A DNA stretch of 32,000 nt from Nostoc sp. PCC 7120 = FACHB-418 (GCF_000009705.1 NC_003272.1:5790001-5822000); one strand, 5' to 3'. Positions 1,487 through 27,050 are shown, numbered from the stretch's first letter. Program-made: numbers and translations. The notes: generated by a model not told the origin, from the sequence alone.

Positions 1487-1720
1487 TTAATTGGTTGATT
1501 CATCGTCATCAGGGAAGGGTAAAATAGGCAGGCGATCGCCGCGAAATAATTCTTCACTGGCTTGGCCTAAGGATTCCAGGGCTTTTACGGTGACTTGTCC
1601 AGTGGTCAGCAGCAGTAGTATAGACGCTGTACCTATTTCTAAGAGGAGAGATTGGGGAATGCTAAACAAAACCAAATTTAATCCGGGGGTTGGTGTGGAC
1701 TGTTGGGTAATAGGAGGCAT
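1487..1720 (-). CDS. Small hypothetical protein (77 aa) with a hydrophobic core and an acidic C-terminus
   Basis: ATG-initiated ORF on the same strand as ppc and directly upstream of it. Its composition is more protein-like (LLLEIGTASILLLLTTGQVTVKALESLGQASEELFRGDRLP) than the overlapping plus-strand ORF 1491..1733. No family recognised. Confidence 0.45.
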   Translation of the reverse strand: MPPITQQSTPTPGLNLVLFSIPQSLLLEIGTASILLLLTTGQVTVKALESLGQASEELFRGDRLPILPFPDDDESTN

Positions 1721-1936: not shown

Positions 1937-4936
1937 ATGAAAACAGTCCTACTAGATAGCCAGCAATCCTTATTGCAATGGGTCAGCCAAGCAACGGGGA
2001 TAAATACTTTCGGGGTGAAAGTCCGGTTACGGGGAAATGACCTTCATATTCTTTGTGAAGGTTTAGAATGTCCTCAACGCTGGCGCACTCTCTCTGATTT
2101 GCTTCATGCGCTACAGCAAACAGATTTAGATGTCCTCACCAGCAACGAACAACCCTCAATATACCAAGTATTTGTCTACGGGCGAAAAAAAGGGGAGTAC
2201 CGCCCCCAATGGTGTCACAAAGTCCACTTAAACCAGTTGGAACGCCATCTGGAACAGGTGGAACAAGCCCTGCTAGAAGACGCAGCTAAAGCCCCTGGTG
2301 GGGCAATGATTCTCTCTAATGAGAGTTTGGCACGTCGAGGCGATGCCAACGCCATAGCCCGTTATCTCAGCGAAACCTTGAGTGCGATGGGTGTGGCGGT
2401 GCAGGTGCAAGTGAAGCAGCATCAGCCTGAAGATGGTAATTCTGATGTATTTAATCGCCTGTGGATATTTTGCCAGTCTGCTTATAGTCCTGACCCTTCA
2501 TTATTAGCCGAACCCGTAGCCCAGAAATTACGCCAATTGAAGTTGGCTGGCTACCGGGATGCTGTTATTGTTTCTCAAGTTAGTGGTGAGACAAACCCTG
2601 ATTGGTTGTTAAGGATTGACTTGACACCACCGGAGGTGATGCTGAAGGAATGGGCTAGGTGGGGAGATGTGCAAGCGATCGCCCGTCTACTCACGGCCGC
2701 ATTATCAGAGTTACTTGTAACTGTGCAGGTTTCCTTGCAGGAATCCACCCTACATATATTTTGTGAACCAACTGCTAATTCATCGCCAGATTCCCCAGCA
2801 CCAGACAAGACAACTTGCGTCGAGAAAATTTCCTCCCAACTAGAAGCGATCGCCCCCCAAGGTATCCTCGCGGCTACGGTTTACGGGCAGAAAATCAATG
2901 ACAAACAGCCAGAATGGATTGATTGGCTGAAGTTACCCGCCAGTGAACATCCAGCCTTGGCTACCTCCGCTTTTGACTTAGCTATTACTGGTGATGAACC
3001 TGCAATTATTTTCCTCCTAGAACGCCTCCTCAACCCAGACTTAGACCGCAAGTTAAAAACAGGCGGTCTGCGGGTACTCTTGCTGCGGAAAGGGGATTTA
3101 CTCCACATCATGTGTGATGCACCTGTTTGTCCCAGCCGCAAACAAGTAGCACCAAAAGTTATCCAGTTTTTGCGTCAATTAAATTTGGCGGGGACTGCTG
3201 GCGTGCGGGTTTATGGTCGTCGTGCGGGTAATAAGGAACCCTTTTGGCATTATGGTGTAGATTTAGTCCACCGCCAGCGCTTAGTTCCCGAAGCCACCCC
3301 AGAATTTGCCGCTACTTCCGAATACGTCAACGAACTCATTACCAAAGAAGACGACGAACCAATTTTACGTTCTGAGGTCACCACAGAGGAAGTCCAAAAT
3401 TTTGTCTCGGAAGTGGCGCGAGATTGGGTAACAACCACAACTACCACGCTGAGAAAGTGGTTTCTTAACACCCAGTTATTTACCGAAAGCGGTCAGCCGA
3501 CAAACCAATTTACTGATAACCAAGGAGTCAAGGTTGCTTTAGTTTGGGGTACTTTGGGCTTATTGCTCACCCTGCAAACAGATTGGATTTTAGGTGTGAT
3601 TGTAACTCGCACTATGCCCAGTACAACTCAGGCGGCTAGTATCTCCCAACCATCACCCTCTGAGCCAATATCTGACTATGAAAATAACCAAAATCAGAGA
3701 ACAGCATTTTTCACCACCAGTTCTCAGCAGAGGGGAGGTGTATTCAATCCTTCTGGCTTCACTCAAGATGATAATCAATCCAGAAACTTAAAAGCCGCAC
3801 CACTAAGAGAAAAAGGCACAGCCACAGCTATTTTATTGGCAGCGCGATCGCAAATGCCCAGCTTTAATGTGAGGCAATTAGATGAGCAATTGGCTTTATA
3901 TAAACAACGCATCGCCAGAAACGGTAAAGCGCCGGATGTGTTGATTATTGGTTCCTCCCGCGCCCTGAGGGGAGTTGATCCGATGGCTTTATCTAAAGCT
4001 TTAGCACTGCAAGGTTATCCCAAAGTAGATGTATTTAACTTTGGCATTAACGGAGCCACCGCCCAAGTTGTAGACTTTGTGGTTCGCCAAGTTTTGCAAC
4101 CATCGGAACTACCAAAAATTATTATTTGGGCTGATGGTTCCCGTGCGTTTAATAGTGGACGAGAGGATTTAACATTTAGAGCGATCGCTAATTCCCCAGG
4201 CTATCAAGATATTTTGCAGAAAGCCCAGACAGCCTCCAGTAGCGATGAATCAGCAAAAACTCCTGAAAAGCCGACTGAAGAGGTGAAAAAACCACCCAAG
4301 CCAGAAATGAATAGCTATCAAGCTGTAAATTTGTGGTTAAACCAAGGTTTGGCGGCTGTTTCTGTCACCTATCAAAACCGCGAACAAGTCAAAACATTAT
4401 TGCAAAATAAACTAGCGTCTTTACCTATATTTAGTAGCAAGTTACCAGAAGCCACATCACCAACACAGTCCACAGTAGATAATGCCGAAGATAGTAATAA
4501 TTTGCAAGCTGTTGATTTTGATGGTTTCCTAGCTTTATCTGTGCGCTTTCATCCAGCTAGATACTATCAAAAACATCCTAAAGTTACAGGTAATTACGAC
4601 AATGATTATAAATCATTTCAAGTAGGTGGTATACAAGATGCCGCCTTCCGAGATGTTTTGCAATTTACCCAATCGCAAAATATTTCTTTAGTCTTTGTCA
4701 ATATGCCTCTGACAGCAGAATATTTAGACCCAGTACGTAAAAAATATGAGCAAGAATTTCAGCAATATATGTTAGCTTTAGCCACAAATCCTAACTTTAT
4801 CTATCGAGATTTAAGCGAACTGTGGACAAAAGCCAATGATTATTTTTCAGACCCCAGCCACCTTAATCGTTTTGGTGCTTATGAAGTATCCAAAAAACTA
4901 GCAAATGACCCGATGATTTCCTGGCCAACGAAGTAG
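1937..4936 (+). CDS. 999-aa multidomain protein: four N-terminal ~100-aa repeats, one TM helix, a Pro/Ser/Gln-rich linker and a C-terminal DltD-like/SGNH-type domain
   Basis: Long ATG ORF. Predicted TM segment VKVALVWGTLGLLLTLQTDWILGVIV at about aa 531-558. The C-terminal third has a DltD-type serine motif (DVLIIGSSRALRGVDP) and a distal Asp/His motif (FSDPSHLNRFGAYEVSKKL). It sits 89 nt upstream of an MBOAT gene on the same strand. Confidence 0.85.
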   Translation: MKTVLLDSQQSLLQWVSQATGINTFGVKVRLRGNDLHILCEGLECPQRWRTLSDLLHALQQTDLDVLTSNEQPSIYQVFVYGRKKGEYRPQWCHKVHLNQLERHLEQVEQALLEDAAKAPGGAMILSNESLARRGDANAIARYLSETLSAMGVAVQVQVKQHQPEDGNSDVFNRLWIFCQSAYSPDPSLLAEPVAQKLRQLKLAGYRDAVIVSQVSGETNPDWLLRIDLTPPEVMLKEWARWGDVQAIARLLTAALSELLVTVQVSLQESTLHIFCEPTANSSPDSPAPDKTTCVEKISSQLEAIAPQGILAATVYGQKINDKQPEWIDWLKLPASEHPALATSAFDLAITGDEPAIIFLLERLLNPDLDRKLKTGGLRVLLLRKGDLLHIMCDAPVCPSRKQVAPKVIQFLRQLNLAGTAGVRVYGRRAGNKEPFWHYGVDLVHRQRLVPEATPEFAATSEYVNELITKEDDEPILRSEVTTEEVQNFVSEVARDWVTTTTTTLRKWFLNTQLFTESGQPTNQFTDNQGVKVALVWGTLGLLLTLQTDWILGVIVTRTMPSTTQAASISQPSPSEPISDYENNQNQRTAFFTTSSQQRGGVFNPSGFTQDDNQSRNLKAAPLREKGTATAILLAARSQMPSFNVRQLDEQLALYKQRIARNGKAPDVLIIGSSRALRGVDPMALSKALALQGYPKVDVFNFGINGATAQVVDFVVRQVLQPSELPKIIIWADGSRAFNSGREDLTFRAIANSPGYQDILQKAQTASSSDESAKTPEKPTEEVKKPPKPEMNSYQAVNLWLNQGLAAVSVTYQNREQVKTLLQNKLASLPIFSSKLPEATSPTQSTVDNAEDSNNLQAVDFDGFLALSVRFHPARYYQKHPKVTGNYDNDYKSFQVGGIQDAAFRDVLQFTQSQNISLVFVNMPLTAEYLDPVRKKYEQEFQQYMLALATNPNFIYRDLSELWTKANDYFSDPSHLNRFGAYEVSKKLANDPMISWPTK
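1958..3262 (+). repeat. Four tandem protein-level repeats (~aa 8-98, 126-229, 236-333, 344-442) inside the 999-aa ORF
   Basis: Manual alignment gives a shared pattern: GD..AIA..L (repeats 2-4), a beta-like V.V.V stretch, L(H/W)I.C (LHILC, LWIFC, LHIFC, LHIMC), a Pro-containing loop, L..L.L.G, V.VYG (degenerate, IVSQVSG, in repeat 2), then P.W...(V/I).L. Confidence 0.7.
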
Positions 4937-4937
4937 A

Positions 4938-5023
4938 AGAGGGGCAGGGGGGTGTAGGGGAAGCAAAGAAGAATAACTACGGACTAACGACAACCAACAA
5001 CTGACAACCGACAACTGACTAAA
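4938..5023 (+). repeat. Composite intergenic repeat: G-rich head + AAGAAGAATAAC + six heptamer units (GACAACC/GACAACT type)
   Basis: The sequence ggggcaggggggtgtaggggaagcaaagaagaataac is followed by gactaac gacaacc aacaact gacaacc gacaact gactaaa. A second copy lies in the same orientation at 31778..31886. Confidence 0.7.
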
Positions 5024-5025
5024 CC

Positions 5026-6525
5026 ATGAACTTTATATCTATTTTGTATGGGCTTTTCTTGTTAAGTACGTTAGGAATTTATTGGTCTGTAGGTCGTCAA
5101 AAACTGCGGTTGTGGACTTTATTGATTGCTAGCCTGGTGTTTTACTCGTCCCTGAGTATCCAATACATACCACTGTTATTAACACTCACATTTATTAACT
5201 TCCGCTTAGGGCGAGAAATTGGTAAAAATACCTCACCAGGACAACATAACCTCAACTGGCAAATTTCTAATGAAGAATGGCAATTTGCTCAAGTGGATTG
5301 GAACCGTAAACGGCTAAACTTATTGTGGCTAGGTGTGGTCTTAAATGTTCTATTATTACTCGGATTTAAGTATATTAATAGTTTCTTGCAGTTAATTTTT
5401 GATTTCCCCGTTAACCCATCAGAATCATCTTGGAAAATCATTGCACCTTTAGGAATTTCATTTTTTACATTTGAATGTATTGCTTATTTAATAGATGTTT
5501 ATCGTGGTGCGCCTGCAACTAATAATTTTCTCCAATTCGCTACCTATAAATTATTTTTTGCGAAATTAATTTCTGGCCCAATTACCCGCTATCACAACCT
5601 AGCAAATCAATTCAATACATTAGAGTTGCCCACTGCTGATAGGGTATCAGAGGCATTATGGTTAATTGCTAGGGGTGCTGTCAAAAAAGGGATTTTGGCA
5701 GACAGGCTAGGAATTTTTGTGGATTTGTGTTTCGGTAATTTGCCACGGGCTGGTAGTACTGATCTTTGGCTAGCTACTTTCGCTTATGGTTTGCAGTTGT
5801 ATTTGGATTTTAATGGTTACGTAGATATCGCCCGTGGTACTGCCTTGCTATTTGGTTTAGTGCTACCAGAAAACTTTGATTTTCCCTATTTCACCACCAG
5901 CATTGCCGAATTTTGGCGGCGTTGGCACATGACTTTAGGCGATTGGTTGCGGAATTATGTCTACTTTCCTTTGGGTGGTTCTCGTCAAGGTTTAACTCGT
6001 ACCTGCGGGAATTTGTTCTTGATTATGCTAATCGCCGGGATTTGGCACGGTTCCGCCTGGGGCTTCGTGGTTTGGGGGATGTATCATGGTTTAGCTTTAG
6101 TGGTTCATCGACTGACCGATTTGATGAGCGATCGCTACGAAAAGTTAGAGCTATTCTGGCAAAATCCTTTAGGGGTAGTTGTGGCTTGGCTATTAACTCA
6201 ATGGATGGTTTTCACTTCTTGGATTTGGTTCCGTCTGCCTAATCTGCCAGAATCTTCTCTAGTTATTCAGCGCCTCTGGGGTCACTCTGCGGATGCCCAA
6301 TTTGCACAAAAGGTCTACATAGAAGCCTTAAATACTAGCCAATCTCAAGTTTCTGCCATCCTTCTGGCTTTATTTACTCTCATGGGTATAACCTATGCCT
6401 TCAAAGGCAAGCTGAAACTAGAGCTAAACTGGCCTCTCAAACTCGTCTTTGTACCTCTATGCCTCTACGCTGTTTGGTTATTCGCCCCTGAAGGCAGCCT
6501 TCCTTATATTTACTTTGATTTTTAA
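5026..6525 (+). CDS. MBOAT-family membrane-bound O-acyltransferase (AlgI/DltB/PatA-like)
   Basis: 499-aa polytopic protein with MBOAT signature regions FWRRWHMTLGDWLRNYVYFPLGGSR and IAGIWHGSAWGFVVWGMYHG (conserved His). Confidence 0.9.
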   Translation: MNFISILYGLFLLSTLGIYWSVGRQKLRLWTLLIASLVFYSSLSIQYIPLLLTLTFINFRLGREIGKNTSPGQHNLNWQISNEEWQFAQVDWNRKRLNLLWLGVVLNVLLLLGFKYINSFLQLIFDFPVNPSESSWKIIAPLGISFFTFECIAYLIDVYRGAPATNNFLQFATYKLFFAKLISGPITRYHNLANQFNTLELPTADRVSEALWLIARGAVKKGILADRLGIFVDLCFGNLPRAGSTDLWLATFAYGLQLYLDFNGYVDIARGTALLFGLVLPENFDFPYFTTSIAEFWRRWHMTLGDWLRNYVYFPLGGSRQGLTRTCGNLFLIMLIAGIWHGSAWGFVVWGMYHGLALVVHRLTDLMSDRYEKLELFWQNPLGVVVAWLLTQWMVFTSWIWFRLPNLPESSLVIQRLWGHSADAQFAQKVYIEALNTSQSQVSAILLALFTLMGITYAFKGKLKLELNWPLKLVFVPLCLYAVWLFAPEGSLPYIYFDF

Positions 6526-8067: not shown

Positions 8068-8652
8068 CTATTTGATTTTTGAATAAGTTCCGTACATCTG
8101 TAGAGTGTCAAAATCAAAGGTAGTGTGTCTAATAAACCACTCAAATATCCACTTTAAATGTGAAAATGAAGGAATTAAAGCACAAAAACGTCTAACCCAT
8201 GTTTTGGCTTGTAACCAAATATCCTCTATCGGATTTTGTACTGGGCAATTAGGGGCAAAACGGACACAGTGTATTTTCCATTGCTCGGTTGGTAAGCTTT
8301 GATTAACAGAGTCCAAGAAACCTCTAATTTCCTTGGAACGGTGGTAGCTAGCCCCATCCCAAAAAATTAGTAATCGCTGGTCGGGAGAGTTAGCTAGTAA
8401 GTATTCTAGGTAGTTGATAGTATTTTTTGAGTTTCCAGCATCATAAGCTTTGAGAACTAATTCTCCAAGGAGATAGTCAACTGCCCCATAGTATGTCTGC
8501 TTATCTCGCTCGTTGACAACTGGGACTGCGATTTCTTGGTCACTTTTTCCCCATACATAACCACTTAAATCTCCCCACATTAAATGACACTCATCAATTA
8601 ACAATACTCTTAACTTTCCTGTTTCGATTTCTTCTCGGTTATTTGCCAGCAA
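8068..8652 (-). CDS. IS630-family transposase, C-terminal DDE catalytic ORF
   Basis: Acidic triad candidates are D in LLIDECH, D in LIFWDGASYH and E in NPIEDIW. The start in the ORF track is a TTG (rc of 8650-8652) and is probably not a true initiation codon. The stop codon lies inside the terminal IR. Confidence 0.8.
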   Translation of the reverse strand: MLANNREEIETGKLRVLLIDECHLMWGDLSGYVWGKSDQEIAVPVVNERDKQTYYGAVDYLLGELVLKAYDAGNSKNTINYLEYLLANSPDQRLLIFWDGASYHRSKEIRGFLDSVNQSLPTEQWKIHCVRFAPNCPVQNPIEDIWLQAKTWVRRFCALIPSFSHLKWIFEWFIRHTTFDFDTLQMYGTYSKIK

Positions 8653-9179
8653 TGTTTCAATCTCTTTTTTTTTTCTGCAACAGCATTCTCATCGGCTTTC
8701 GGATTTACCTTTGTGGTTTTCTTCCAACTGATTCCTGCTTCGGAGAACAAGTCGTAGTAGCTTTGCTTTGACTCATAAACTACGTCATACTCAAAAGCTA
8801 GTTGATACTCTAGTTCCCCAAGCTCCCAACAATCTTTTGTTTGTAGCCAGCTCAACACCTCTTGGAGTTGTTTAGCATTCAGATAGCTCTTTCTCCCTTT
8901 GTAGTTTAGTCGCAGTCCGTCAATTCCAGTTTCTTCATAGGCTTGCTTCCAGCCTGTGATTGACCCTCGCGATACGTCTAAAATTTTTTGGATTTCATCA
9001 TACAAGTAACCTTGATAAACTAGCTTGACTGCCAATGCTTTCCTTACTTCACGCGCATCTGGACACATATCTATAAAATCTTGTAATTCAGCAATCGCAT
9101 TCAGTGCAGTTTCCTCTTTTAAATATTGCTGCGATACTTCCCCCGCAAGTGTAGTAGCTTGTAAATGCTGACTTTTCAT
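8610..9179 (-). CDS. IS630-family transposase, N-terminal (HTH/DNA-binding) ORF
   Basis: ATG at 9179. The helix-turn-helix-like N-terminal region is typical of IS630 transposases. The ORF ends 55 nt after an A10 run, where the reading frame of the DDE part takes over. Confidence 0.8.
   Translation of the reverse strand: MKSQHLQATTLAGEVSQQYLKEETALNAIAELQDFIDMCPDAREVRKALAVKLVYQGYLYDEIQKILDVSRGSITGWKQAYEETGIDGLRLNYKGRKSYLNAKQLQEVLSWLQTKDCWELGELEYQLAFEYDVVYESKQSYYDLFSEAGISWKKTTKVNPKADENAVAEKKKRLKHCWQITEKKSKQES
8664..8674 (-). promoter_or_regulatory. Putative -1 frameshift or transcriptional-slippage site (A10 run containing A AAA AAG in the zero frame)
   Basis: The minus strand reads GCA GAA AAA AAA AAG AGA. 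A -1 shift on A AAA AAG gives ...AVAEKKKKEIETLLANNREEIETGKLRVLLIDECH, joining the two ORFs into one transposase of about 370 aa. Frame arithmetic: ORF1 codon tops are 2 mod 3 and ORF2 codon tops are 0 mod 3, which equals -1. Confidence 0.55.
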
Positions 9180-10514: not shown

Positions 10515-12626
10515 ATGAACGATACCTACGGTAATCAACGAAATAACCCTTCTGATTTTTCAACCACAGGTGCAATCAACTTAGGATTAGTTTTGCAACG
10601 GGGTGGAGAAGAATTGATACTCGAAAAGGCCTTAGACCGCTTCACCATCCGTTTTGTCACCGATTTTCCTGTGCAACAATTATCTCAGATTAGTTGGGGT
10701 ATTTGGCATAGCAGTATTACCCAAGCTCAATTAGAACTATACCAGGTTGCGCCCAACCAAATAGAGGAGGCGATCGCTCAAGCCCGCGCTAACCAAAATG
10801 TCGCTTTTGCTAGTCATGCTTATACCGTTAAGGATAATCCTGGGACATTTGTTTATCTCAGCGACCAAATTACAATTCAGTTTGCGCCTAAGTTAGATGC
10901 TGTCAAAATTACCCTCATAGCCTCTCAATTCAACCTAGTTGAAGACAAGCCAATTCCCGGTTTACCCAATGCGTTTGTATTTTTGGTTAGCAAACAAGCT
11001 ACAGAAAATCCCGTCAAAATTGCTAATCAATTACAAAGCATCCCAGAAGTTTTGGCGGCTGAACCGAATGTGTTAATACAAACGGAAACCCACTATAAAC
11101 CCAGCGACAACCTTTATCCCCAACAATGGTATCTCAACCACAACGGTGGTAATGAATTGGTTGCCAGTTCCCATATCGCCGTAGAACAAGCTTGGGACAT
11201 TACACGCGGTGTCCGTTCTGTCGTGGTGGCTGTGGTGGATGACTCCTTTGATTTAAATCACCCAGATTTTCAAGGTAGTGGTAAGATTGTTGCCCCTAGA
11301 GACTTGCGGGAAAATGACTTTTTACCTTTACCTAGTGAAAAAGAACGCAGTCATGGTACTGCTTGTGCTGGTATTGCCTTAGCAGAAGAAAACGGTGCAG
11401 GAATTGTTGGAGTTGCTCCTGGTTGTGCATTAATGCCCATTCGTACCACTGGCTTTTTAGATGACGAATCTATTGAGCAGATATTCAACTGGGCTATGGA
11501 AAAAGGAGCCAGTGTGATTTCTTGTAGTTGGGGGGCTTCTGCTGTGTATTTCCCCTTATCATTGCGTCAACGGGCTGCTATTACCAGGGCAGCTACCCGT
11601 GGACGTAATGGAAAAGGTTGCGTAGTGCTATTCGCGGCTGGTAACGCCAACCGTCCAGTTAGTGGCGCTATTTATGAACAAGATTGGCCGGGTAATGTTC
11701 TACAAGGTGTGACAGATTGGTTAAATGGTTTTGGCGTACATCCTGATGTGATGACGATCGCTGCATCTACTAGTATGAGTAAAAAGGCCGCCTATAGTAA
11801 TTGGGGATTGAACATTTCCCTATGTGCGCCTAGTAACAATGCCTCACCGGGAATGTCTTTTCCAGAAAAGGGGTTTTTGTATACGCAACCAAGCATCAAA
11901 ACTAACTTAAGTGGGTTAGGAATGCTCACAACCGATATAGTAGGAGCCGCAGGTTATGACCCTGGTAACTTCACTAGTAACTTTGGCGGTACTTCCAGCG
12001 CCACACCTGTAGTTGCGGGGGTAGCAGCCCTAGTTTTATCAGTTAATCCCGATTTGACAGCCCAACAAGTCAAACGAATTTTAGAAACAACAGCAGATAA
12101 AATCGTAGACCCTGACCCCGACCCCCAACTAGGGTTAAGTGAAGGCAAATATGATGAAAATGGTTATTCTCAGTGGTTTGGTTATGGTAAGGTCAATGCT
12201 GCTAGGGCAGTACAAGTAGCATTCCAACAACGAACCACGCTATCAGATGCTAGTAAACAAGTAAAACTTAGTAATTCTAATCGATTAGAGATTCCTGATA
12301 ATAATATCCAAGGAATCAAAAGCACAATCGCCGTTGCCGATGGCAGCAGCGTTAAAGATATTCAAGTTGGCGTTAATTTAACTCACGATTTTTTAGGCGA
12401 TATAGAAATTTATTTAATCGCTCCTAATAACCAGCAGGTGCTATTGCAAAATCGTACCTTAGGAAATCGGACTGATTTACAAATAACTTATGGAGTGCGA
12501 TCGCATCCTATCCTGAAACAGTTACTCTCACAATCAGCCACAGGCAATTGGCAGTTATGGATAATTGACTACTCACCCCAAGACATCGGCAGACTCAACA
12601 GTTGGGAATTAACATTAGGGATTTAG
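10515..12626 (+). CDS. Subtilisin-family (S8) serine peptidase with a C-terminal proprotein-convertase P-domain
   Basis: Catalytic motifs appear in order: VVAVVDDSFD (Asp), SHGTACAGIA (His), FAAGNAN (oxyanion Asn) and GGTSSATPVVAGVAAL (Ser). The C-terminal ~115 aa (IPDNNIQGIKSTI...THDFLGDIEIYLIAPNNQQVLL...GNWQLWIIDYSPQDIGRLNSWELTL) matches the kexin/furin-type P-domain pattern. Confidence 0.9.
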   Translation: MNDTYGNQRNNPSDFSTTGAINLGLVLQRGGEELILEKALDRFTIRFVTDFPVQQLSQISWGIWHSSITQAQLELYQVAPNQIEEAIAQARANQNVAFASHAYTVKDNPGTFVYLSDQITIQFAPKLDAVKITLIASQFNLVEDKPIPGLPNAFVFLVSKQATENPVKIANQLQSIPEVLAAEPNVLIQTETHYKPSDNLYPQQWYLNHNGGNELVASSHIAVEQAWDITRGVRSVVVAVVDDSFDLNHPDFQGSGKIVAPRDLRENDFLPLPSEKERSHGTACAGIALAEENGAGIVGVAPGCALMPIRTTGFLDDESIEQIFNWAMEKGASVISCSWGASAVYFPLSLRQRAAITRAATRGRNGKGCVVLFAAGNANRPVSGAIYEQDWPGNVLQGVTDWLNGFGVHPDVMTIAASTSMSKKAAYSNWGLNISLCAPSNNASPGMSFPEKGFLYTQPSIKTNLSGLGMLTTDIVGAAGYDPGNFTSNFGGTSSATPVVAGVAALVLSVNPDLTAQQVKRILETTADKIVDPDPDPQLGLSEGKYDENGYSQWFGYGKVNAARAVQVAFQQRTTLSDASKQVKLSNSNRLEIPDNNIQGIKSTIAVADGSSVKDIQVGVNLTHDFLGDIEIYLIAPNNQQVLLQNRTLGNRTDLQITYGVRSHPILKQLLSQSATGNWQLWIIDYSPQDIGRLNSWELTLGI

Positions 12627-12644
12627 TTAATAGTCAATAGTCAA
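12624..12644. repeat. Heptamer array TAGTTAA TAGTCAA TAGTCAA
   Basis: Direct reading. The first unit supplies both the peptidase stop (TAG 12624-12626) and the convergent acyltransferase stop (rc of tta 12627-12629). Confidence 0.6.
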
Positions 12645-13490
12645 TAATTCTCTTTTCCTGCTCGTTGCTCCCCCTCGGACGTTCGGCGAGCGCTCAGTCG
12701 AGTCGCTGACGCTTACTATGGGAGAAGTGCTAACTTCTGCGGCATCATGATGACTGAAGGCTAGTTCTGGATTACTTAAGCTTTGTAAATCCCTAGCTAA
12801 ATCTTCTGTAAGGCGTTTAGCGTTTTGCTTCACTTTACCCTTGGTGTAATCTTGGACATTAATTGGCGAACCAATGTGAATACTCACATCTGTACCCCAA
12901 CAAGGATAAGGCTGACTGTAATTAATGCTAATGGGCAATATTTTCACCCCCAATCCCGGGTGACTAGATTCCGCGCTTAAAGCTAGACGGGAAATTCCTG
13001 ACTTGAGCGGATGCAATTTACCATCCCGAAAAATATTGCCCTCTGGATAAATGACTAACATTTGTCCTTGTTGGAGTAATTCTACCGCGTGGCGTAGAGT
13101 AGAAACGGCAGGGTGTTGAGTATCTATAGGAAAGCCACCCATACGCCGTACAAACCAACCTTGCAAACCTCGACATTCAGTCTTAGTCACCATAAATTTT
13201 AAATCCCGACCGGTAACGTAACGCCCGGTTGCGTAAGGTAGGAGCAATGAATCCCACCTGGCTCGATGAGTTGGAGCCAAAATCACAGGGCCTGTCTTGG
13301 GAATATTTTCCTGTCCAGTAATGGAAATGCGCCCAAAAAATGATGGTAGTAAGAAATAATTACCAACAAAATACAATACAGGACTCAACCAAGGGGAAAC
13401 CCGCGAAGTAGTCACAGCTACCTGAGGATGGACGAGCCTATTTGTTGGTTGTGTTTGGTGAGTATCAGACACAGAGAAAAATTCGATCAT
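12627..13490 (-). CDS. Lysophospholipid acyltransferase family protein (1-acyl-sn-glycerol-3-phosphate acyltransferase-like)
   Basis: HX4D motif (APTHRARWDS) and the PEG block (IYPEGNIFRDG). The last ~45 residues are low-complexity and are read through repeat-like DNA. Confidence 0.8.
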   Translation of the reverse strand: MIEFFSVSDTHQTQPTNRLVHPQVAVTTSRVSPWLSPVLYFVGNYFLLPSFFGRISITGQENIPKTGPVILAPTHRARWDSLLLPYATGRYVTGRDLKFMVTKTECRGLQGWFVRRMGGFPIDTQHPAVSTLRHAVELLQQGQMLVIYPEGNIFRDGKLHPLKSGISRLALSAESSHPGLGVKILPISINYSQPYPCWGTDVSIHIGSPINVQDYTKGKVKQNAKRLTEDLARDLQSLSNPELAFSHHDAAEVSTSPIVSVSDSTERSPNVRGGATSRKRELLTIDY

Positions 13491-17436: not shown

Positions 17437-19233
17437 ATGCAAAATTGTGCCACAGGAATGCAGATGGATTGGATTAGCTTACTCAAAGCTCAACAAGCTG
17501 ACTTCCTTCTCCGTGTGAAAAAACCGAAGACTTACGATCTGTCGTTGTTGGAAAGTCAAGTGAAAGGTTGCCACAGCGAAATTATGGCATTTTGGGGGGA
17601 GCCATTTGCCAAAATTCAGGAAGTTTCTCGCCGACAAGCTGAAATCCTTGCTAAAAATCCGCCTCCCATCCCGCCTGAATATCCAGAACCGCCTGACTGG
17701 ACGATTCCTTTCCCTATCCACTTCCAGCAGCAAGCAGAAGATTATTTCTTGCGAGAACAAATTGTTGATCGCCTCATCGTTGAACGTTTGGGTAAGTTAC
17801 TGAAAAAGTTGCCCCAGGATACTGTGAAAAACATGGTACTTGATGATGAAGGCAATTTGCGCGGTGAAAGCAAATTTACTTATTTGTTAGCAGATAACCC
17901 AAAAATCAGCGTGCAAGTTTATGTAGCAGATGGAGAAAGTTTTAATGGTATTAAGAAAGATAAAATTAAGTGGTCAGTTACTCAAGAAGATTTGAAAAAT
18001 CACCAAGTATTAATTTTTCTGTGTTTATTTTATCCATCCACAGGTAAACTTGGTTATGAAAAGCAAGCTGTAGTAGCTGGCTTTTTACCTACTAGTCACA
18101 TCGCAGTAACTGAACCAAAGCTATATTTCACCCCCAGCCATTTGTTATATGCAGGTGGATTAAGTTGGTATTTAGAATCACTCACTGCAAAAAAAGAGGC
18201 GAAACTAGATTTTCTGCCGGTAGTAATTGAGAGGACGATACCAGAAACGATTCAAACTGTACCCTCAGAACATCCCCGCAAAGAAATTATTGGTGATTGG
18301 GAATGTTGGCAGACATTAAGAGGACACATGAGAGGAATTAATTGCTTGTCTTTTAGTTCTGGGTGTGAAAATGGTTTGCCGATGTTAGCTAGTGGGAGTC
18401 GGGGAGAGACAAAACTCTGGGACTTAAACCAAGGTGAATTAATCGATACTTTGTCGGAATATCCTTGGATTGTCTCTGGGTTAGTAGATGAAGTAAATTC
18501 TCTGGCTTTTAGTGCCGATGGGCAAATGTTGGTGAGTGGCGGTGCAGACTCCACTATTAAGATTTGGCACACAGGCGCACTGGATTTAATTGATATTCTG
18601 CACAAACACAATGGGATTGTGCGGTGTGCGGCTTTTACTCCCGATGGACAGATGCTAGCAACTGGTGGCGATGATAGAAGAATCTTGTTTTGGGATTTGA
18701 TGCACCGTCAGGTCAAAGCTATTTTGTCTTTAGATGATACGGCTGCCCATTCTCTAGTTTTGAGCAGAGATGGACAAACTTTAGTTACAGGGAGCTATCG
18801 CAAAATCAAAGTTTGGCAAACTTCTGGTTCCTGGTTCGGCAAAAATCTCAAGGATGCACAACCGTTACATACCCTGATGGGTCATGGTCATATCGTGCGG
18901 TCTTTAGCAATGAGTAAAGATGGTCAACTACTGATTAGTGGCAGTTGGGATCAGACGATTAAAATTTGGCACTTGGCGACTGGGAGATTAATCCGCACCC
19001 TCAAAGGTCATACAGATAAAGTGTATGCGATCGCTTTAAGTCCTGATGAACAAATTATCGCTAGTGGTAGTTCTGATCAAACCATCAAGTTGTGGCATCT
19101 GGAAACAGGCGAGTTATTAGCTACGTTTACAGGTCACACTGATATCGTCACAGCGCTAACTTTCACTACATCCGGTGAGATGTTAGTCAGTGGCAGTTTG
19201 GATAAGACAATTAAACTTTGGCAAAGAAGTTAA
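17437..19233 (+). CDS. WD40-repeat protein with an uncharacterised ~290-aa N-terminal domain
   Basis: The C-terminal ~300 aa contains repeated GH...(V/I)x(S/A)(L/V)AFSxDGQxL(A/V)SGSxDxT(I/V)K(L/I)W units, e.g. GHTDKVYAIALSPDEQIIASGSSDQTIKLWH and GHTDIVTALTFTTSGEMLVSGSLDKTIKLWQ. Confidence 0.9.
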   Translation: MQNCATGMQMDWISLLKAQQADFLLRVKKPKTYDLSLLESQVKGCHSEIMAFWGEPFAKIQEVSRRQAEILAKNPPPIPPEYPEPPDWTIPFPIHFQQQAEDYFLREQIVDRLIVERLGKLLKKLPQDTVKNMVLDDEGNLRGESKFTYLLADNPKISVQVYVADGESFNGIKKDKIKWSVTQEDLKNHQVLIFLCLFYPSTGKLGYEKQAVVAGFLPTSHIAVTEPKLYFTPSHLLYAGGLSWYLESLTAKKEAKLDFLPVVIERTIPETIQTVPSEHPRKEIIGDWECWQTLRGHMRGINCLSFSSGCENGLPMLASGSRGETKLWDLNQGELIDTLSEYPWIVSGLVDEVNSLAFSADGQMLVSGGADSTIKIWHTGALDLIDILHKHNGIVRCAAFTPDGQMLATGGDDRRILFWDLMHRQVKAILSLDDTAAHSLVLSRDGQTLVTGSYRKIKVWQTSGSWFGKNLKDAQPLHTLMGHGHIVRSLAMSKDGQLLISGSWDQTIKIWHLATGRLIRTLKGHTDKVYAIALSPDEQIIASGSSDQTIKLWHLETGELLATFTGHTDIVTALTFTTSGEMLVSGSLDKTIKLWQRS

Positions 19234-19642: not shown

Positions 19643-22468
19643 ATGGGCAAAATAATGCCAGTGAGTAACACGAAGCCTTCTTTGCAGCGCCAAATTAAAA
19701 CTATGATTCGTTCTAGTGTTCAAACTGCTCAAAAGCTACCTTTGCGCTTGATTTTGGTTGTTCCTTTTGTGCTGCAAATTTTCACAGCAGTAAGTCTTGT
19801 AGGTTATCTCTCTTTTAAAAATGGACAAAAGGCAGTAAATGAACTCGCTGACCAGCTAATTGTGAAAGTGAATGGGTTAGTTGATCAACATCTTGATAGT
19901 TACTTAGCAGCCCCTCTCCAGATTAATCAAATCAATGTGGATGCTACCAATTTAGGAATGCTGAATCTGGAAAATTTTCAGACTACAGGACGTTATTTCT
20001 GGCAGCAAATGCAGGTATTTAATGTTGGTTATATTAGTTTTGCTAATCTCCAAGGAGAATTTATTGGAGTTGAACGCTTAGATAAAGGTGGACTCTTAAT
20101 TAATGAAGTTTCCCAAAAAAATGGGATTGGCAAACTGTATGTTTATACTACCAATAATCAAGGCGATCGCCAGCAATTAATAGCAGTTAAAGATTATGAT
20201 CCTCATGTAGAAGCTTGGTATGCAGATGCAGTTAAGGCAGGTAAACCTGTCTGGAGTCAGATTTATTCATGGGAAGATAAACCAGAAGTTTTATCTATAT
20301 CTGCAAGTTATCCGATCAATGACAATAATAATAAATTTTTTGGTGTGATTAGTGTTGACTTAATACTATCACAAATTAACAGCTTTTTAGCCAATTTGAA
20401 AGTCGGACAAACAGGACAAATATTTATTTTAGAACGCTCTGGAATGATCGTTGCTTCTTCTACTAGTGAAGCACCATACAAAGTGATAAGTGGCAAAGCA
20501 CAAAGGCTATCGGCACACCAGAGTCAAAATTATTTACTTCGAGAAACAACGGATTATCTGCAACAAAAATTCGGTCAACTAAAAAACGTTAAGAGTTATC
20601 AACAGACTGTATTGCAACTACAACATGAAAGACATTTTGTGCAAGTAAGACCTTGGAACGATAAATTAGGTTTGGATTGGTTAGTGATTGTCGTTGTTCC
20701 TGAGAGCGACTTTATGGGACAAATCAATACCAACAATCGCACAACTATTTTACTTTGTTTGTGGGCGCTGATCATAGCGACGGCAATGGGTGTATATACT
20801 TCCCGTTGGATTGCTCGTCCTATTGTGCAGTTAACTCAAGCTAGTAGTGCGATCGCTTCTGGTAACCTTGACCAAGAGGTGAGGGTTTCTGGCTTAAAAG
20901 AATTGAGTACGCTTGCCACATCTTTTAATCAAATGGCAGGACAACTACGTGATAGTTTCGCAGAATTAGAAAAAACCAATCAAGAATTAGAAAATAGAGT
21001 TGCGGAACGAACGGCGGAAATCACAGCAGCTAAAGAAGTGGCTGATGCTGCTAACCGTGCAAAAAGCGAATTCTTGGCTAATATGAGCCATGAATTACGC
21101 ACCCCACTAAATGGTATTCTTGGCTATGCACAAATTTTGCAACTTGATTCAAATACTAATGACGAGCAAATGCAAGGTTTGAACACCATTTATGAGTGTG
21201 GCTCTCATTTGCTGACCTTAATTAATGATATTTTAGATATTGCCAAAATTGAAGCTAAAAAATTAGAACTCTATCCTCAGGAATTTGATCTGGGAAGATT
21301 ATTGCTCGGCGTTTGTGAGATGTGCCATATTAAAGTAGAGCAAAAAGGAATTAGTTTTAAATATCAATTTAATGATTATATTCCTTCTAAAACTTTTGCT
21401 GATGAGAAACGGATACGCCAGGTATTAATTAATATTCTGAGTAACGCTATTAAGTTTACGGATAATGGTACAGTCACTTTTGATGTAGAAGTAGTTGCCT
21501 GTACAGGTACAAAATTAATTACCAATACAAATCAGATACTGCCAGTTCATCAACTGAGATTCCAAATTGAAGATACAGGTATTGGGATGACAGATGAACA
21601 ACTCAAAAAAATATTTTTGCCCTTTGAGCAAGTAGGAGATAATTTACATAAATCAGAAGGAACAGGTTTAGGACTAGCAATTAGTAGTCAAATTCTAGAA
21701 TTGATGGGTAGTGATATTAAAGTTGAGAGTGTATATGGTAAAGGAACTAAGTTTTGGTTTGATTTAGATTTACCTATAATTGATACTGGGAAAATCTCTT
21801 TATCAGTTGAAAGTCAAAAAAATATTATTGGCTATGAAGGGAAGACAAAAAGTATCTTAATTATTGATAGTAGTTGGGAAAAACGTGATATTTTCGCCAA
21901 TTTATTATCATCCTTAGGGTTTAAGTTAACTGAGGTTAGTAATTTACAAGAGAGTTTAGATAAGATAAAAGCTGAACATCCCGATTTAATTATTGCTGAT
22001 ATCGCCATGCCGGAAATAAATAACTTGCAGGCGACAACAATGATGCGATCGCAAGTAGAATTTGCAAAGTTGGTGATAATTGCTTCGTCAGCTAGTGTAT
22101 CTGAATATACTCGTCAGCAAAGTCAAGAAGCTGGTTATGATGATTTTTTAGCGAAACCTGTAAAGGTTGAAGACCTATTTAATATGTTACAAACTTATTT
22201 ATCTTTAAAATGGATTTACTCACCTAATGATGATTCCTCAGCTAAAATTTCATCTATAGAAGAAATTATATTTCCCCCTCCTACGGAATTGGTTAATTTA
22301 TATCAAGCTGCTAAAGCTGGTTATGTAGTTGGTATCCAAGAAGAAATCACCAGGATTCAGCAATTAGATAAAAAATATACGCGTTTTACCGTTAAAGTTT
22401 CAGAATTAATAGCAGAGTTTGAAGATGAGGCAATTGTTTCTATGATTCAACCTCATCTATCATATTGA
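19643..22468 (+). CDS. Hybrid sensor histidine kinase: TM, periplasmic Cache-like domain, TM, HAMP, HisKA, HATPase, REC and an ~85-aa C-terminal tail
   Basis: Two TM segments ([25 protein letters not shown]; [24 protein letters not shown]) flank a ~300-aa extracytoplasmic region. The HAMP-like region includes [22 protein letters not shown]. The H-box is [18 protein letters not shown] boxes are [16 protein letters not shown] and GTGLGLAIS. The receiver has [10 protein letters not shown] and LAKP. Confidence 0.9.
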
Positions 22469-22605
22469 TATTGATAAATCCTTCACTAATAACACCAAAA
22501 ATTTATTATACATATTTATGTTTAAGACAATAAAAATGTATTTTTTTCAGGAAAGTTATTAAATAAAGATGAATCTAAAACTATGATGTTTCACAGGATA
22601 ATTAG

Positions 22606-23829
22606 ATGAGCAGTCCCATAAATAACTCAGTCTTAATTGTAGATGATATCCCGACTAACATCAAGGTTTTGTTTGACATTCTCAATCAGGCTGGTTTTCG
22701 AGTCTCTGTTGCTAAAAATGGTCTAAGCGCGTTAGCAAAAGTACAAGAAACATTACCAAATTTGATTTTATTAGATGTCATGATGCCTGGTATGGATGGA
22801 TTTGAAACTTGCCGCCACCTAAAGGCCAATCCCAAAACCAAGGACATTCCCGTAATTTTCATGACGGCTCTATCTGATACAGTAAATAAAGTCAAAGGGT
22901 TGCAAATTGGAGCAGTTGACTATATTACTAAACCTATTGAATATGAAGAAGTTTTAGCGAGAATCAATGTCCATTTAGAATTGCGGCGGACTCAATTAAA
23001 GCTAGCACAAGAGGAGAAAATGTCTTCTTTGGGTCAATTGGTAGCAGGAATTGCCCATGAAATTAATAATCCAGTTAATTTTGTTTATGGGAATTTAGCC
23101 CACGCTCAAAATTATGTTGGAGACTTATTAAATTTATTAAAATTGTATGAGAATCATACAGCTAACCCAAGTCCCGAAATTCAAGAATTCTCCAAAAGTA
23201 TTGAATTAGAGTTTATTAAACAAGATTTACCACATCTATTATCTTCGATGCAAATGGGGACTGAGAGAGTGGAGAAAATCGTGCGATCGCTGCGTTTATT
23301 CTCTCGATTGGAAGATCTAGAATTTCAACTGTTTAACTTACATGAAGGTATTGATAGTACACTCATAATTTTAAGTCACCGCCTCAAAATTTTGCCTACA
23401 GATTCAACAATTAATATTATTAAGGAATATGGTGATATCCCTTTGGTGGAGTGCTATTCTGGAAAACTTAACCAAGTATTCATGAATTTGCTGGCTAATG
23501 CCATTGAGGCATTAGAGGAGTCAGTAATTAATAGAGAAAGAACTGATACATTGACAATTGGAATTCGGACAAAAGTCACGGATGACCAAAAATCAGTATT
23601 AATTGAAATTACAGATAATGGTGTTGGTATTCCTCTAGAAGTACAACAGCGCATTTTTGAGCAATTTTTCACTACCAAGCCTTTAGGTAAAGGTACAGGT
23701 TTAGGATTGGCGATCGCTCATGAGATTATAGTCGAAAAACATGGGGGTACTCTACAGGTACAATCTACTCCGGGAAAAGGTACCCAATTTTTAATCACTA
23801 TTCCCATTCAGCAAGTGATTAGATATTAA
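22606..23829 (+). CDS. Response-regulator receiver fused to a histidine kinase (REC-HK), paralogue A
   Basis: REC motifs: LIVDDIPTN, LILLDVMMPGMDGFE, FMTALSD, ITKP. Kinase motifs: AHEINNPVNF (H-box), NLLANAIEAL (N-box), [21 protein letters not shown]. Confidence 0.9.
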   Translation: MSSPINNSVLIVDDIPTNIKVLFDILNQAGFRVSVAKNGLSALAKVQETLPNLILLDVMMPGMDGFETCRHLKANPKTKDIPVIFMTALSDTVNKVKGLQIGAVDYITKPIEYEEVLARINVHLELRRTQLKLAQEEKMSSLGQLVAGIAHEINNPVNFVYGNLAHAQNYVGDLLNLLKLYENHTANPSPEIQEFSKSIELEFIKQDLPHLLSSMQMGTERVEKIVRSLRLFSRLEDLEFQLFNLHEGIDSTLIILSHRLKILPTDSTINIIKEYGDIPLVECYSGKLNQVFMNLLANAIEALEESVINRERTDTLTIGIRTKVTDDQKSVLIEITDNGVGIPLEVQQRIFEQFFTTKPLGKGTGLGLAIAHEIIVEKHGGTLQVQSTPGKGTQFLITIPIQQVIRY

Positions 23830-24306
23830 TGTTAGCTATTTTTACGGTAATAATACTTTACTATCTGTTTGGAAAAAATAATCAGGTAGTAATTGCTGCT
23901 TCAGCAGAAAAGTATTTAGGAGCCATGACAGCTTGATTTCTGTACCTATATTTTATCTTTATGATTCTTTAACTCAATCTAGTCATGAACTCTCATACAG
24001 ATGAGTCCAACATAAATCAACCTGGACTACTATATATTGATGTTATAACAATTATTGGTTGTGGCTGTTGCTCTATTACAATTTCTGGGAATCATAATCT
24101 TATAGGTTATTTATAAAGCAAGAATAACATTTATGCTGGGGAGCTTGTCTCTGTTGTAGCAACTGGTATTGTGCCAGGAACGTATGTAGACATGATTGGT
24201 CAGGGGAATAATAATTTAAGCGATGAACACACTCAAGACTTACTTTATAAATAGTCTTGTATTCCATTGGCAGTGAATCACTATAAAATCCGCGAGTTCA
24301 AATCAA

Positions 24307-25638
24307 ATGCTTGATACATCAACCGAAACTAGCTTTATTTTAATCGTAGATGATACCCTAACCAATCTCGAAATTATCTCTGAAGCATTGATTGGCGCAG
24401 GTTTTGAAGTAGCCACCGCAGTTGATGGAAAAAAAGCACTCGAACAGATACAAATTAGAGTGCCAGATTTAATTCTGCTGGATGTCATGATGCCAATAAT
24501 GGATGGATTTGAAACCTGTAAAAACTTGAAAATTCAGCCAGAAACTCACGACATTCCCGTGATTTTCATGACAGCAATTACCGATACAAATAGTAAAGTA
24601 GAAGCCTTAAGTTTAGGTGCAGTTGATTACATTACTAAGCCATTCCATAAAGCGGAAGTATTAGCTCGTATCTCTTCCCATTTGCAACTAAGAAGCCTGA
24701 ATAAAAATTTAGAAAAACGAGTTACTGAACGTACGGCGGAATTAAATCAAGCATTAAAAGACCTACAAGATTATCAACTCCAACTTGTACAACAAGAAAA
24801 AATGTCTGTTCTTGGACAATTAGTAACAGGATTAGCTCATGAAATTAATAACCCAGTCAGTTGTATTTATGGCAATTTAGGTCACGCTTTAACATATTTT
24901 GAAAATATGAATAAGCTGATTAATTTATATCAAAGTTACTATCCCCATCCTGTACAAGAAATTCAAGACGAAATCAGTGAGATGGATTTAGCTTATGTGC
25001 GCTCTGACTTACCCAATTTAATTTTTTCTATGAAAGAAGGGATTCAGCGCATCCGAGATATTAGCAGGAGTCTACGTATTTTTTCCAGATCAGACACAGA
25101 GAAAAAAATTCAGTTTGATATTCATGAAGGAATTGATAGCACTATTTTAATACTCAAACATCGATTGAAAGGGTCTGAAAATCATCCTGATATTGAAATT
25201 AAACGAGATTATGGTGTTATACCTCAAGTTAACTGCTTTCCTGGGCAATTAAATCAGGTGTTCATGAATATTTTAGCTAATGCCATTGATGCCTTGGAGG
25301 AATCATTTAGTCATAAATATTCTTCAATAATAGATAGTGCAGTAACTGATAATCAAAAACTAATGGCTGAGACTCCAAAAATCATCATTCAGACAATGCT
25401 GAGTGAAGATCAAAGTCATGCTTTAATTAAAATTCAAGATAATGGCATAGGAATGCCACATCAAATTAAAGAAAGAATATTTGATAATTTGTTTACTACT
25501 AAACCCGTGGGTAAAGGTACAGGTTTAGGATTATCAATTTCTCGGCAAATTATCATTCAAAAACATGGCGGGAAACTTGAGGTAAATTCAGAACCAGGAA
25601 GAGGCTCAGAATTTATTATTAACATCCCTATTGAATAA
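24307..25638 (+). CDS. Response-regulator receiver fused to a histidine kinase (REC-HK), paralogue B
   Basis: REC motifs: LIVDDTLTN, LILLDVMMPIMDGFE, FMTAITD, ITKP. Kinase motifs: AHEINNPVSC, NILANAIDAL, DNGIGMP, GKGTGLGLSISRQI. Confidence 0.9.
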   Translation: MLDTSTETSFILIVDDTLTNLEIISEALIGAGFEVATAVDGKKALEQIQIRVPDLILLDVMMPIMDGFETCKNLKIQPETHDIPVIFMTAITDTNSKVEALSLGAVDYITKPFHKAEVLARISSHLQLRSLNKNLEKRVTERTAELNQALKDLQDYQLQLVQQEKMSVLGQLVTGLAHEINNPVSCIYGNLGHALTYFENMNKLINLYQSYYPHPVQEIQDEISEMDLAYVRSDLPNLIFSMKEGIQRIRDISRSLRIFSRSDTEKKIQFDIHEGIDSTILILKHRLKGSENHPDIEIKRDYGVIPQVNCFPGQLNQVFMNILANAIDALEESFSHKYSSIIDSAVTDNQKLMAETPKIIIQTMLSEDQSHALIKIQDNGIGMPHQIKERIFDNLFTTKPVGKGTGLGLSISRQIIIQKHGGKLEVNSEPGRGSEFIINIPIE

Positions 25639-25886
25639 CTATGTCAGTTGTCAAACTTAATTTCTCTAGCTAATTATGTATTTGGGTAAAAGTTAATCAA
25701 AGCCAGGATGTTTTCTATCATCCTTAAATAATTGATAAATTAATCTTTGTTCACAGTACAACTTATCATAAATTCATGAACAATTTAGTATGAATTCATC
25801 GCTAATTTATGTGATTTGCAAATTTATTCAGAAAACTAGGGAACTATATTGCTGTAGGGATTAGTGTTTTACAGAGTAAAACGACG

Positions 25887-27035: not shown

Positions 27036-27050
27036 TAATTTAAGGATTGT

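Follow-up and report, generated by a model that had tools for sequence, protein, structure and literature searches.

A DUF1574-family SGNH protein with a large, predicted cytoplasmic repeat module is paired with an MBOAT in a putative envelope O-acyltransferase of Nostoc sp. PCC 7120

Among the described MBOAT-SGNH polymer O-acyltransferases, PatA/PatB (O-acetylation of peptidoglycan in Neisseria and Campylobacter), DltB/DltD (D-alanylation of teichoic acids), AlgI/AlgJ/AlgX (alginate), and WssH/WssI (cellulose) provide the framework for a gene pair of Nostoc sp. PCC 7120, alr4863 and the MBOAT gene downstream of it, which we analyzed within a 32,000-nucleotide stretch of the genome (NC_003272.1:5790001-5822000; referred to as the window). 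Bacterial MBOATs other than those of the Dlt type have a C-terminal FxYxxF hexapeptide on two extra transmembrane (TM) helices, the Tyr of which is auto-acetylated from acetyl-CoA and then acts as the donor to the SGNH partner, and systems with this motif function without DltX and DltC (Anderson et al. 2025, PMC12148441). The partners PatB and DltD possess an N-terminal TM anchor only, and, in agreement with the original prediction that known partners have a short cytoplasmic stub, no described MBOAT partner carries a module such as that found in alr4863 (PMC12148441). Our results suggested that alr4863 and the MBOAT probably constitute a two-component PatA/PatB-like O-acyltransferase for an extracytoplasmic envelope polymer, most probably an O-acetyltransferase. 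The pair differs from the known systems by a partner belonging to DUF1574, a large four-repeat module on the predicted cytoplasmic side, and a reported phyletic link to filamentous growth.

Several features were common to PatA/PatB and the pair: an MBOAT that contains a catalytic His, is extended by two TM helices at the C-terminus, and has an FxYxxF-type end (YIYFDF in this case); a separate SGNH partner on one TM anchor; the lack of a carrier or ligase; and an acyl-CoA as the expected donor. On the other hand, the partner belongs to DUF1574, whereas PatB belongs to DUF459/PatB; alr4863 adds ~530 residues, predicted to be cytoplasmic, to the TM anchor that is all PatB has in this region; and no ape-type esterase gene was found beside the pair. 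DltB/DltD follow the same logic of MBOAT plus SGNH protein, with a match to DltB in sequence and to DltD in fold; however, the shuttle motif, which is carried by the DltX microprotein in the Dlt system, was fused to the MBOAT, DltA and DltC genes were absent near the pair, and there was no Pfam match to DltD. Cyanobacteria are not known to produce teichoic acids. AlgI/AlgJ/AlgX and WssH/WssI also combine an MBOAT having the same shuttle motif with an SGNH-type periplasmic transferase and act on an exported polymer; however, their genes are located inside polysaccharide synthase operons, none of which was linked to the pair, and the partner families differ. Compared with other DUF1574 (PF07611) proteins, the cyanobacterial members add the four-repeat module.

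Both open reading frames (ORF) were found where they had been predicted, with the following catalytic parts (positions are those of the window):

1937..4936, + strand: alr4863, 999-aa DUF1574-family protein (ORF), consisting of the four-repeat module, a linker, a TM helix, and an SGNH domain
3812..4933, + strand: DUF1574/SGNH (DltD-like) domain, predicted to be periplasmic, aa 626-999 (Pfam PF07611, invariant motifs, Foldseek)
nt 3950-3961, + strand: SGNH block I GSSR, aa 672-675 (invariant motif)
aa 703-708 of alr4863, + strand: SGNH block III GINGAT (invariant motif)
nt 4850-4861, + strand: SGNH block V DPSH, aa 972-975 (invariant motif)
5026..6525, + strand: alr4864-type MBOAT, 499 aa (ORF; Pfam PF03062)
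6505..6522, + strand: YIYFDF C-terminal hexapeptide of the MBOAT, in which Y496 is the predicted acyl-accepting Tyr (translation)

The 499-aa protein matched the MBOAT family (PF03062) at residues 99-390 (106.9 bits versus 27; E 1.7e-30) and retained the catalytic His in a WHG motif (H341), as well as RRWH at 298-301, confirming its proposed identity. Two extra hydrophobic segments (440-461 and 467-492) followed the MBOAT core. At the sequence level, the only matches in the PDB were DltB structures (6bug and 8jem; E 2e-27), while the score with the DltB equivalog model (NCBIfam TIGR04091), 158.5 bits, was below the cut-off of 375, indicating that the protein is not a DltB equivalog. Among the 81 complete orthologues in the fetched loci, WHG was conserved in all and C-terminal [FY]xYxxF in 80, with exactly LPYIYFDF in 78; the first position of YIYFDF is Tyr, whereas the motif definition has Phe. 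By analogy with the FxYxxF-type MBOATs, an acyl-CoA is predicted as the donor, with acetyl-CoA as the simplest candidate, and the absence of DltA, DltC, and DltX genes is expected because the MBOAT carries an acyl-CoA-fed motif of this type. The original prediction had left the donor open, and the shuttle motif points to acyl-CoA.

Residues 668-976 of alr4863 matched DUF1574 (PF07611) with 36.6 bits (gathering cut-off, 29.1), and the C-terminal part alone with 39.1 bits. When conservation was scored on 68 diverse sequences, down to 34 % identity, GSSR (672-675), N705/G706, D733/G734, and D972-P-S-H975 were invariant, and the Ser of SGNH block I, the Asn of block III, and the Asp-x-x-His of block V were thus all present. 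A full-length AlphaFold2 (AF2) model based on the 68-sequence alignment had a mean predicted local distance difference test score (pLDDT) of 82, with > 90 in all folded parts. The top Foldseek matches of the C-terminal domain were DltD structures (6pfx, 6o93, 7dxm, and 3bma; E 3e-6 to 5e-4, probability 1.00), followed by platelet-activating factor (PAF)-acetylhydrolase, TesA, GDSL lipases, and PatB, with SGNH fold matches at probabilities of 0.97-1.00. No Pfam match to DltD (PF04914) was obtained, even at E up to 10. Judging from the model, the C-terminal domain resembles DltD in fold but belongs to DUF1574 rather than to the DltD family; the SGNH/DltD-like assignment of the original prediction therefore held for the fold and the catalytic residues, with no match to the DltD family in sequence. 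A faint precomputed match of some homologues to PF27429 ("LB_356"), which probably overlaps the DUF1574 part, was not used.

In the proposed mechanism, the MBOAT would take the acyl group from cytoplasmic acyl-CoA via His341, and the group would cross the membrane onto Tyr496 of the MBOAT's own YIYFDF shuttle peptide. It would then be transferred from this peptide to the nucleophilic Ser of GSSR (S673 or S674) in the periplasmic SGNH domain of alr4863, which the conserved TM helix would hold beside the MBOAT, and from the SGNH domain to the acceptor polymer. The module and a conserved VPEAxPEFAA peptide most probably bind a partner or ligand in the cytoplasm, which would tie acylation in the periplasm to a cue or a location inside the cell. 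The residues predicted to matter are H341 and Y496 of the MBOAT and S673/S674 and H975 of alr4863.

In the genome scan for alr4863 homologues, the best 80 loci were all from Nostocales, and wider sampling consisted of eight individual divergent loci (37-53 % identity). The MBOAT gene was located directly downstream in 78 of the 78 Nostocales loci with enough downstream DNA; however, since the whole ppc-to-psbA block is syntenic in Nostocales, this adjacency alone is weak evidence. In four of the eight divergent loci (L081, L086, L088, and L089), in which the neighbors were otherwise unrelated, the MBOAT gene abutted or closely followed the alr4863 homologue, the gap sometimes being 0-13 bp, and in L082 it was one gene away. 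The gene inserted in L082 (3861-6611) encodes a 916-aa DUF5118/DUF5117/DUF4953 (zinc-metalloprotease-like) protein. The predicted co-conservation of the pair was thus found in Nostocales and in five of the eight divergent lineages, but not in the other three: no MBOAT was encoded within 8 kb downstream in L084 ("Synechococcus" CMS01), L085 (Limnothrix), or L087 (the 1510-aa variant P0122). Since the SGNH motifs were intact in these three, the MBOAT may be encoded elsewhere.

The three lineages with no adjacent MBOAT and the Nostocales synteny would also fit a different explanation, in which the SGNH domain is a hydrolase (esterase, de-acylase, or lipase) independent of the MBOAT and adjacency is incidental; hydrolytic activity predominates among SGNH families, and no activity is known for DUF1574. 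We consider this to be unlikely because adjacency recurred in four other lineages with unrelated neighborhoods, sometimes almost without a gap, and because the nearest structures are those of DltD, which is an MBOAT-partnered transferase. Furthermore, the only known role of the MBOAT shuttle motif is to feed an SGNH partner, and the TM helix of alr4863 was unusually conserved together with polar residues (see below), as expected for an intramembrane protein contact.

The part of alr4863 preceding the SGNH domain was composed as follows:

1937..2236, + strand: repeat R1, aa 1-100 (Smith-Waterman alignment versus shuffles, repeat hidden Markov model (HMM), AF2 pLDDT ~90, alpha-bb-alpha-bb; W92 invariant)
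2318..2632, + strand: repeat R2, aa 128-232 (same repeat evidence; W223 invariant, C179 in >=90 % of sequences)
2642..2941, + strand: repeat R3, aa 236-335 (same repeat evidence; W242, G243, P307, and W327 invariant)
2972..3277, + strand: repeat R4, aa 346-447 (same repeat evidence; N366, G376, G377, Y426, R428, and W437 invariant)
3278..3316, + strand: conserved linear motif RLVPEATPEFAAT, aa 448-460 (low-confidence, probably disordered segment)
3383..3469, + strand: juxtamembrane helix in the acidic/Thr-rich linker, aa 483-511 (AF2 helix, composition)
3518..3613, + strand: single TM helix, aa 528-559 (hydropathy, AF2 helix, conservation, topology statistics)

The four predicted ~100-aa repeats were statistically real, both in Smith-Waterman alignments against shuffled sequences and with the repeat-unit HMM: five of the six repeat pairs gave z = 7-17, and the R1-R2 pair gave z = 2.6 (300 shuffles). 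They were not detected in a BLASTP self-comparison of the 999-aa protein, and the shuffle-controlled alignment was needed. An exhaustive HMMER search with residues 1-530 yielded 283 representative clusters, 156 of which were at E < 1e-30. Among the 150 best representatives, 111 had exactly four units by the repeat-unit HMM and 121 contained the DUF1574 domain, the remaining ones being truncated or frameshifted fragments; the short "module-only" representatives were rejected as stand-alone proteins for the same reason. Length variation in the family (up to 1655 aa) was caused by a variable insert between R1 and R2. P0122 (1510 aa) and P0123 (1655 aa) had an insert of 460-580 aa at the R1/R2 boundary, which contained pentapeptide repeats in P0123.

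When modeled alone, the module had a pLDDT of 92 and a predicted template modeling score (pTM) of 0.71, and each unit folded as helix, beta-hairpin, helix, and beta-hairpin (AF2). Residues 1-530 gave no credible Pfam (E up to 10) or NCBIfam family. In a Foldseek search of the PDB, only weak matches to FliF ring-building motifs, GerMN, BON, Ohr, and CinA were found; the best loose matches (ring-building, BON, and GerMN) had a TM-score <=0.46 when single domains were compared and probability <=0.85, and no family was assigned. These results indicated that the ~450-residue four-repeat module is a new domain family, the modeled fold of which is confident. The conservation of R2-R4 was near that of the SGNH core (top-residue frequency of 0.54-0.62 versus 0.64-0.68). 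In the alignment of 68 sequences, one Trp was invariant in every repeat, the invariant module residues were of the types Trp, Gly, Pro, Asn, Tyr, and Arg, no Ser or Cys was conserved across all four repeats, and C179 was the only Cys at >=90 %. Within Nostocales, an LHIxC motif with Cys was present in each repeat.

The module was also found in two orthocaspases, P0230 (Spirulinaceae; four repeats) and P0284 (Symploca; R2-R4 plus VPEAAPEFA), in which Peptidase_C14 is N-terminal and the module is C-terminal. Neither fusion had a signal peptide, a TM helix, or an SGNH domain, and no MBOAT gene was located nearby; they are informative on the module only. The same C-terminal slot is occupied by FGE-sulfatase or GUN4 domains in related orthocaspases. 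P0230 is encoded at locus L083 (5186-7705), and its module was 73 % identical to that of the canonical DUF1574 protein P0282, suggesting recent domain shuffling. On the basis of these arrangements, the module appears to be an autonomous, cytoplasmic-type, portable domain that occupies a "sensor or partner-binding" slot.

The original prediction had proposed that the module could be the donor-presenting or the regulatory part of the machine. As a donor-presenting part, the repeats would feed the MBOAT as an integral acyl carrier comparable to DltC; they are predicted to be on the membrane side from which the MBOAT is supplied with its donor, there is no separate carrier gene nearby, and each repeat in Nostocales has the Cys of LHIxC. 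However, the Cys was not retained family-wide except at C179, no Ser or Cys was common to all of the repeats, and the fold did not resemble that of acyl or peptidyl carrier proteins. A fused FxYxxF motif goes with the use of acyl-CoA, which makes a carrier unnecessary, and caspase-type proteases without a neighboring MBOAT also bear the module. A carrier function is thus very unlikely. The lack of a common Ser/Cys and the self-sufficiency of the MBOAT for the shuttle step both argue for the other half of the proposal, namely, that the cytoplasmic module is probably a regulatory or targeting part. In the favored PatA/PatB-like reading, it would be dispensable for the acyl-transfer chemistry itself.

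Between the module and the membrane, the predicted acidic/Thr-rich linker was borne out by the composition of residues 466-530 (12 D+E versus 5 K+R, and a TTTTT run). The VPEAxPEFAA peptide between R4 and the membrane was invariant in Nostocales; its segment had a family-wide mean top-residue frequency of 0.59, yet a pLDDT < 50, and such conservation in a segment modeled as disordered is typical of a docking motif. One hydrophobic segment (~528-559) followed, which was highly conserved and formed a single long helix in the AF2 model; its polar residues Q547 and D549 were conserved together with W550. None of the 68 sequences had an N-terminal hydrophobic stretch or signal peptide (maximum hydropathy, 0.96). 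In the 30-residue flanks of the TM helix, K+R totaled 187 on the N-terminal and 116 on the C-terminal side. On average, each protein had 6.7 Cys before the TM helix and 0.22 beyond it, and 59 of the 68 had no Cys in the latter part, while the module held 3-10 Cys per protein. An N-in/C-out orientation is therefore predicted, with the repeats in the cytoplasm and the SGNH domain in the periplasm, and this is the sole orientation that places the SGNH domain beside the periplasmic shuttle peptide of the MBOAT. All of the topology indicators agreed with the original prediction of ~530 cytoplasmic N-terminal residues and a single TM helix.

A reversed or otherwise different topology, in which the repeats are a periplasmic ring-building or BON-like assembly domain, is suggested by the loose fold matches of the module (FliF ring-building, GerMN, and BON), which are usually extracytoplasmic. 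These matches are weak, with the scores given above, and the absence of any export signal or N-terminal hydrophobic segment, the Cys-containing module next to an almost Cys-free C-terminal part, and the positive-inside bias all point the opposite way. With the N-terminus in the periplasm, the SGNH domain would also be cytoplasmic and separated from the shuttle peptide, and the caspase fusions lack an export signal. We regard this alternative as extremely improbable.

Neither the window nor the eight divergent loci contained a polysaccharide synthase linked to the pair. For this reason, we conjecture that the acceptor is peptidoglycan or another housekeeping glycan rather than an operon-specific exopolysaccharide. 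The same absence would be compatible with the pair remodeling membrane lipids (a lyso-glycolipid or lipid-linked intermediate) instead of polysaccharide or peptidoglycan; many non-bacterial MBOATs are lysolipid acyltransferases, and the polymer modified by DltD, the closest match in fold, is lipid-anchored. Nevertheless, all characterized bacterial MBOATs with a C-terminal Tyr shuttle and an SGNH partner acylate extracytoplasmic glycopolymers, and a lipid acceptor is, in our view, quite unlikely.

The alr4863 protein (NP_488903) is "Hypothetical (999)" in two comparative studies (PMC2823733 and PMC2821919). It was included in a "core set" of ~ten genes confined to filamentous cyanobacteria, together with hetR, hetZ, and patU3 (Stucken et al. 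2010, PMC2821919), and was described as specific to Nostocales plus Oscillatoriales (Gupta and Mathews 2010, PMC2823733), although these reports of filament specificity from 2010 rest on few genomes. In the present study, the named carriers of homologues were the filamentous Nostocales, Limnothrix, Spirulina, Moorena, Symploca, Coleofasciculaceae, and Leptolyngbyaceae, with one exception, "Synechococcus" CMS01. O-acetylation of peptidoglycan was unmentioned in the Anabaena cell-wall papers found, and the literature searched contained no paper on envelope-polymer O-acylation in filamentous cyanobacteria. A more speculative possibility, which we rate as unlikely in its entirety, is that the pair O-acetylates peptidoglycan or another glycan of the shared periplasm where daughter cells stay joined, and that the module docks on the division/septal machinery or senses a cytoplasmic signal, thereby switching acylation on at these sites. 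If so, acylation would shield the septal wall from autolysins and help cells stay joined as filaments; alr4863 would then mechanistically determine multicellularity in cyanobacteria and be the first example of an MBOAT-SGNH system under the control of a dedicated domain within the cell.

Several points weigh against the PatA/PatB-like reading. DUF1574 is an SGNH-clan family with no characterized member or structure (PMC9487903), and the catalytic domain had no sequence-level link to any characterized SGNH transferase; neither the whole protein nor a catalytic-domain profile had a sequence-level relative in the PDB, DltD included. The hydropathy of the TM helix was marginal (Kyte-Doolittle maximum, 1.53), with Q, T, and D in the segment, and, because of this, the orientation is given here as a prediction; the positive-inside bias was also modest, and the loose fold relatives of the module are mostly periplasmic, as described above. 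The three divergent lineages with no MBOAT within 8 kb also belong here. No biochemical or genetic study of alr4863 or the MBOAT gene was present in the literature searched.

The alr4863 protein has been "hypothetical" since 2010. Its proposed assignment to a PatAB-like envelope O-acyltransferase, in which it would be the SGNH component, provides a concrete and falsifiable hypothesis. The pair would be the first system of the MBOAT-SGNH type to bear a large appendage in the cytoplasm, suggesting that the cell may regulate or position acylation in the periplasm from its interior.

Two further elements of the locus were as follows:

4937..5025, + strand: 89-bp spacer between alr4863 and the MBOAT gene (heptamer repeats at 4988-5019)
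1487..1720, - strand: asl4862-like 77-aa ORF, divergent from alr4863 (translation; upstream conservation)

The spacer contained 4.6 tandem copies of a CGACAAC heptamer at 4988-5019, resembling short tandemly repeated repetitive (STRR) sequences, preceded by G-runs at 4941-4961. No terminator-like hairpin or stable RNA structure was predicted in 4937..5025, consistent with an operon, and the spacer ranged from 0 to 89 bp across loci, with no terminator. The two genes are probably co-transcribed, judging from this arrangement.

Upstream of alr4863, the minus strand carried the gene for phosphoenolpyruvate (PEP) carboxylase and the asl4862-like ORF. The latter combined a hydrophobic helix with a motif conserved at the C-terminus, SEE[LI]FRGDRLPxLxFP, and had no Pfam family. 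Homologues were located just upstream of the alr4863 homologue in six of the eight divergent loci, in most cases with ppc on the other side and in one case with no ppc; the ORF is a possible associate of the pair. However, asl4862 is also listed in Chroococcales, which lack alr4863 (PMC2823733), and, thus, it is not an exclusive partner. A role as a DltX-like shuttle microprotein was rejected because the conserved motif has no Tyr, the MBOAT has its own shuttle, and the ORF occurs in Chroococcales without alr4863.

The alr4863 product was 100 % identical to "DUF1574 family protein [Anabaena sp. FACHB-709]". As originally predicted, no carrier, ligase, or polysaccharide synthase was encoded beside the pair: Pfam and NCBIfam searches revealed no DltA/DltC-like or polysaccharide-synthase genes within the 32-kb window. 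Scans of the window for tRNA and Rfam families gave no match, and neither did plasmid searches with the DNA and with the catalytic domain. The MBOAT gene was followed by psbA, a split IS630 transposase, and a subtilase. The IS630-family transposase (8068..9179, - strand), between psbA and the downstream genes, was present as two overlapping ORFs (189 and 194 aa), being either frameshifted or subject to programmed frameshifting. The subtilase (10515..12626, + strand) had a proprotein-convertase P-domain and was convergent with a PlsC-type glycerolipid acyltransferase (12627..13490, - strand), the stop codons of the two genes abutting. Further downstream, a WD40-repeat protein was encoded at 17437..19233, and the region 19643..28079 encoded a Cache/HAMP hybrid histidine kinase, two response-regulator/histidine-kinase hybrids, a FIST-domain protein, and a further kinase.

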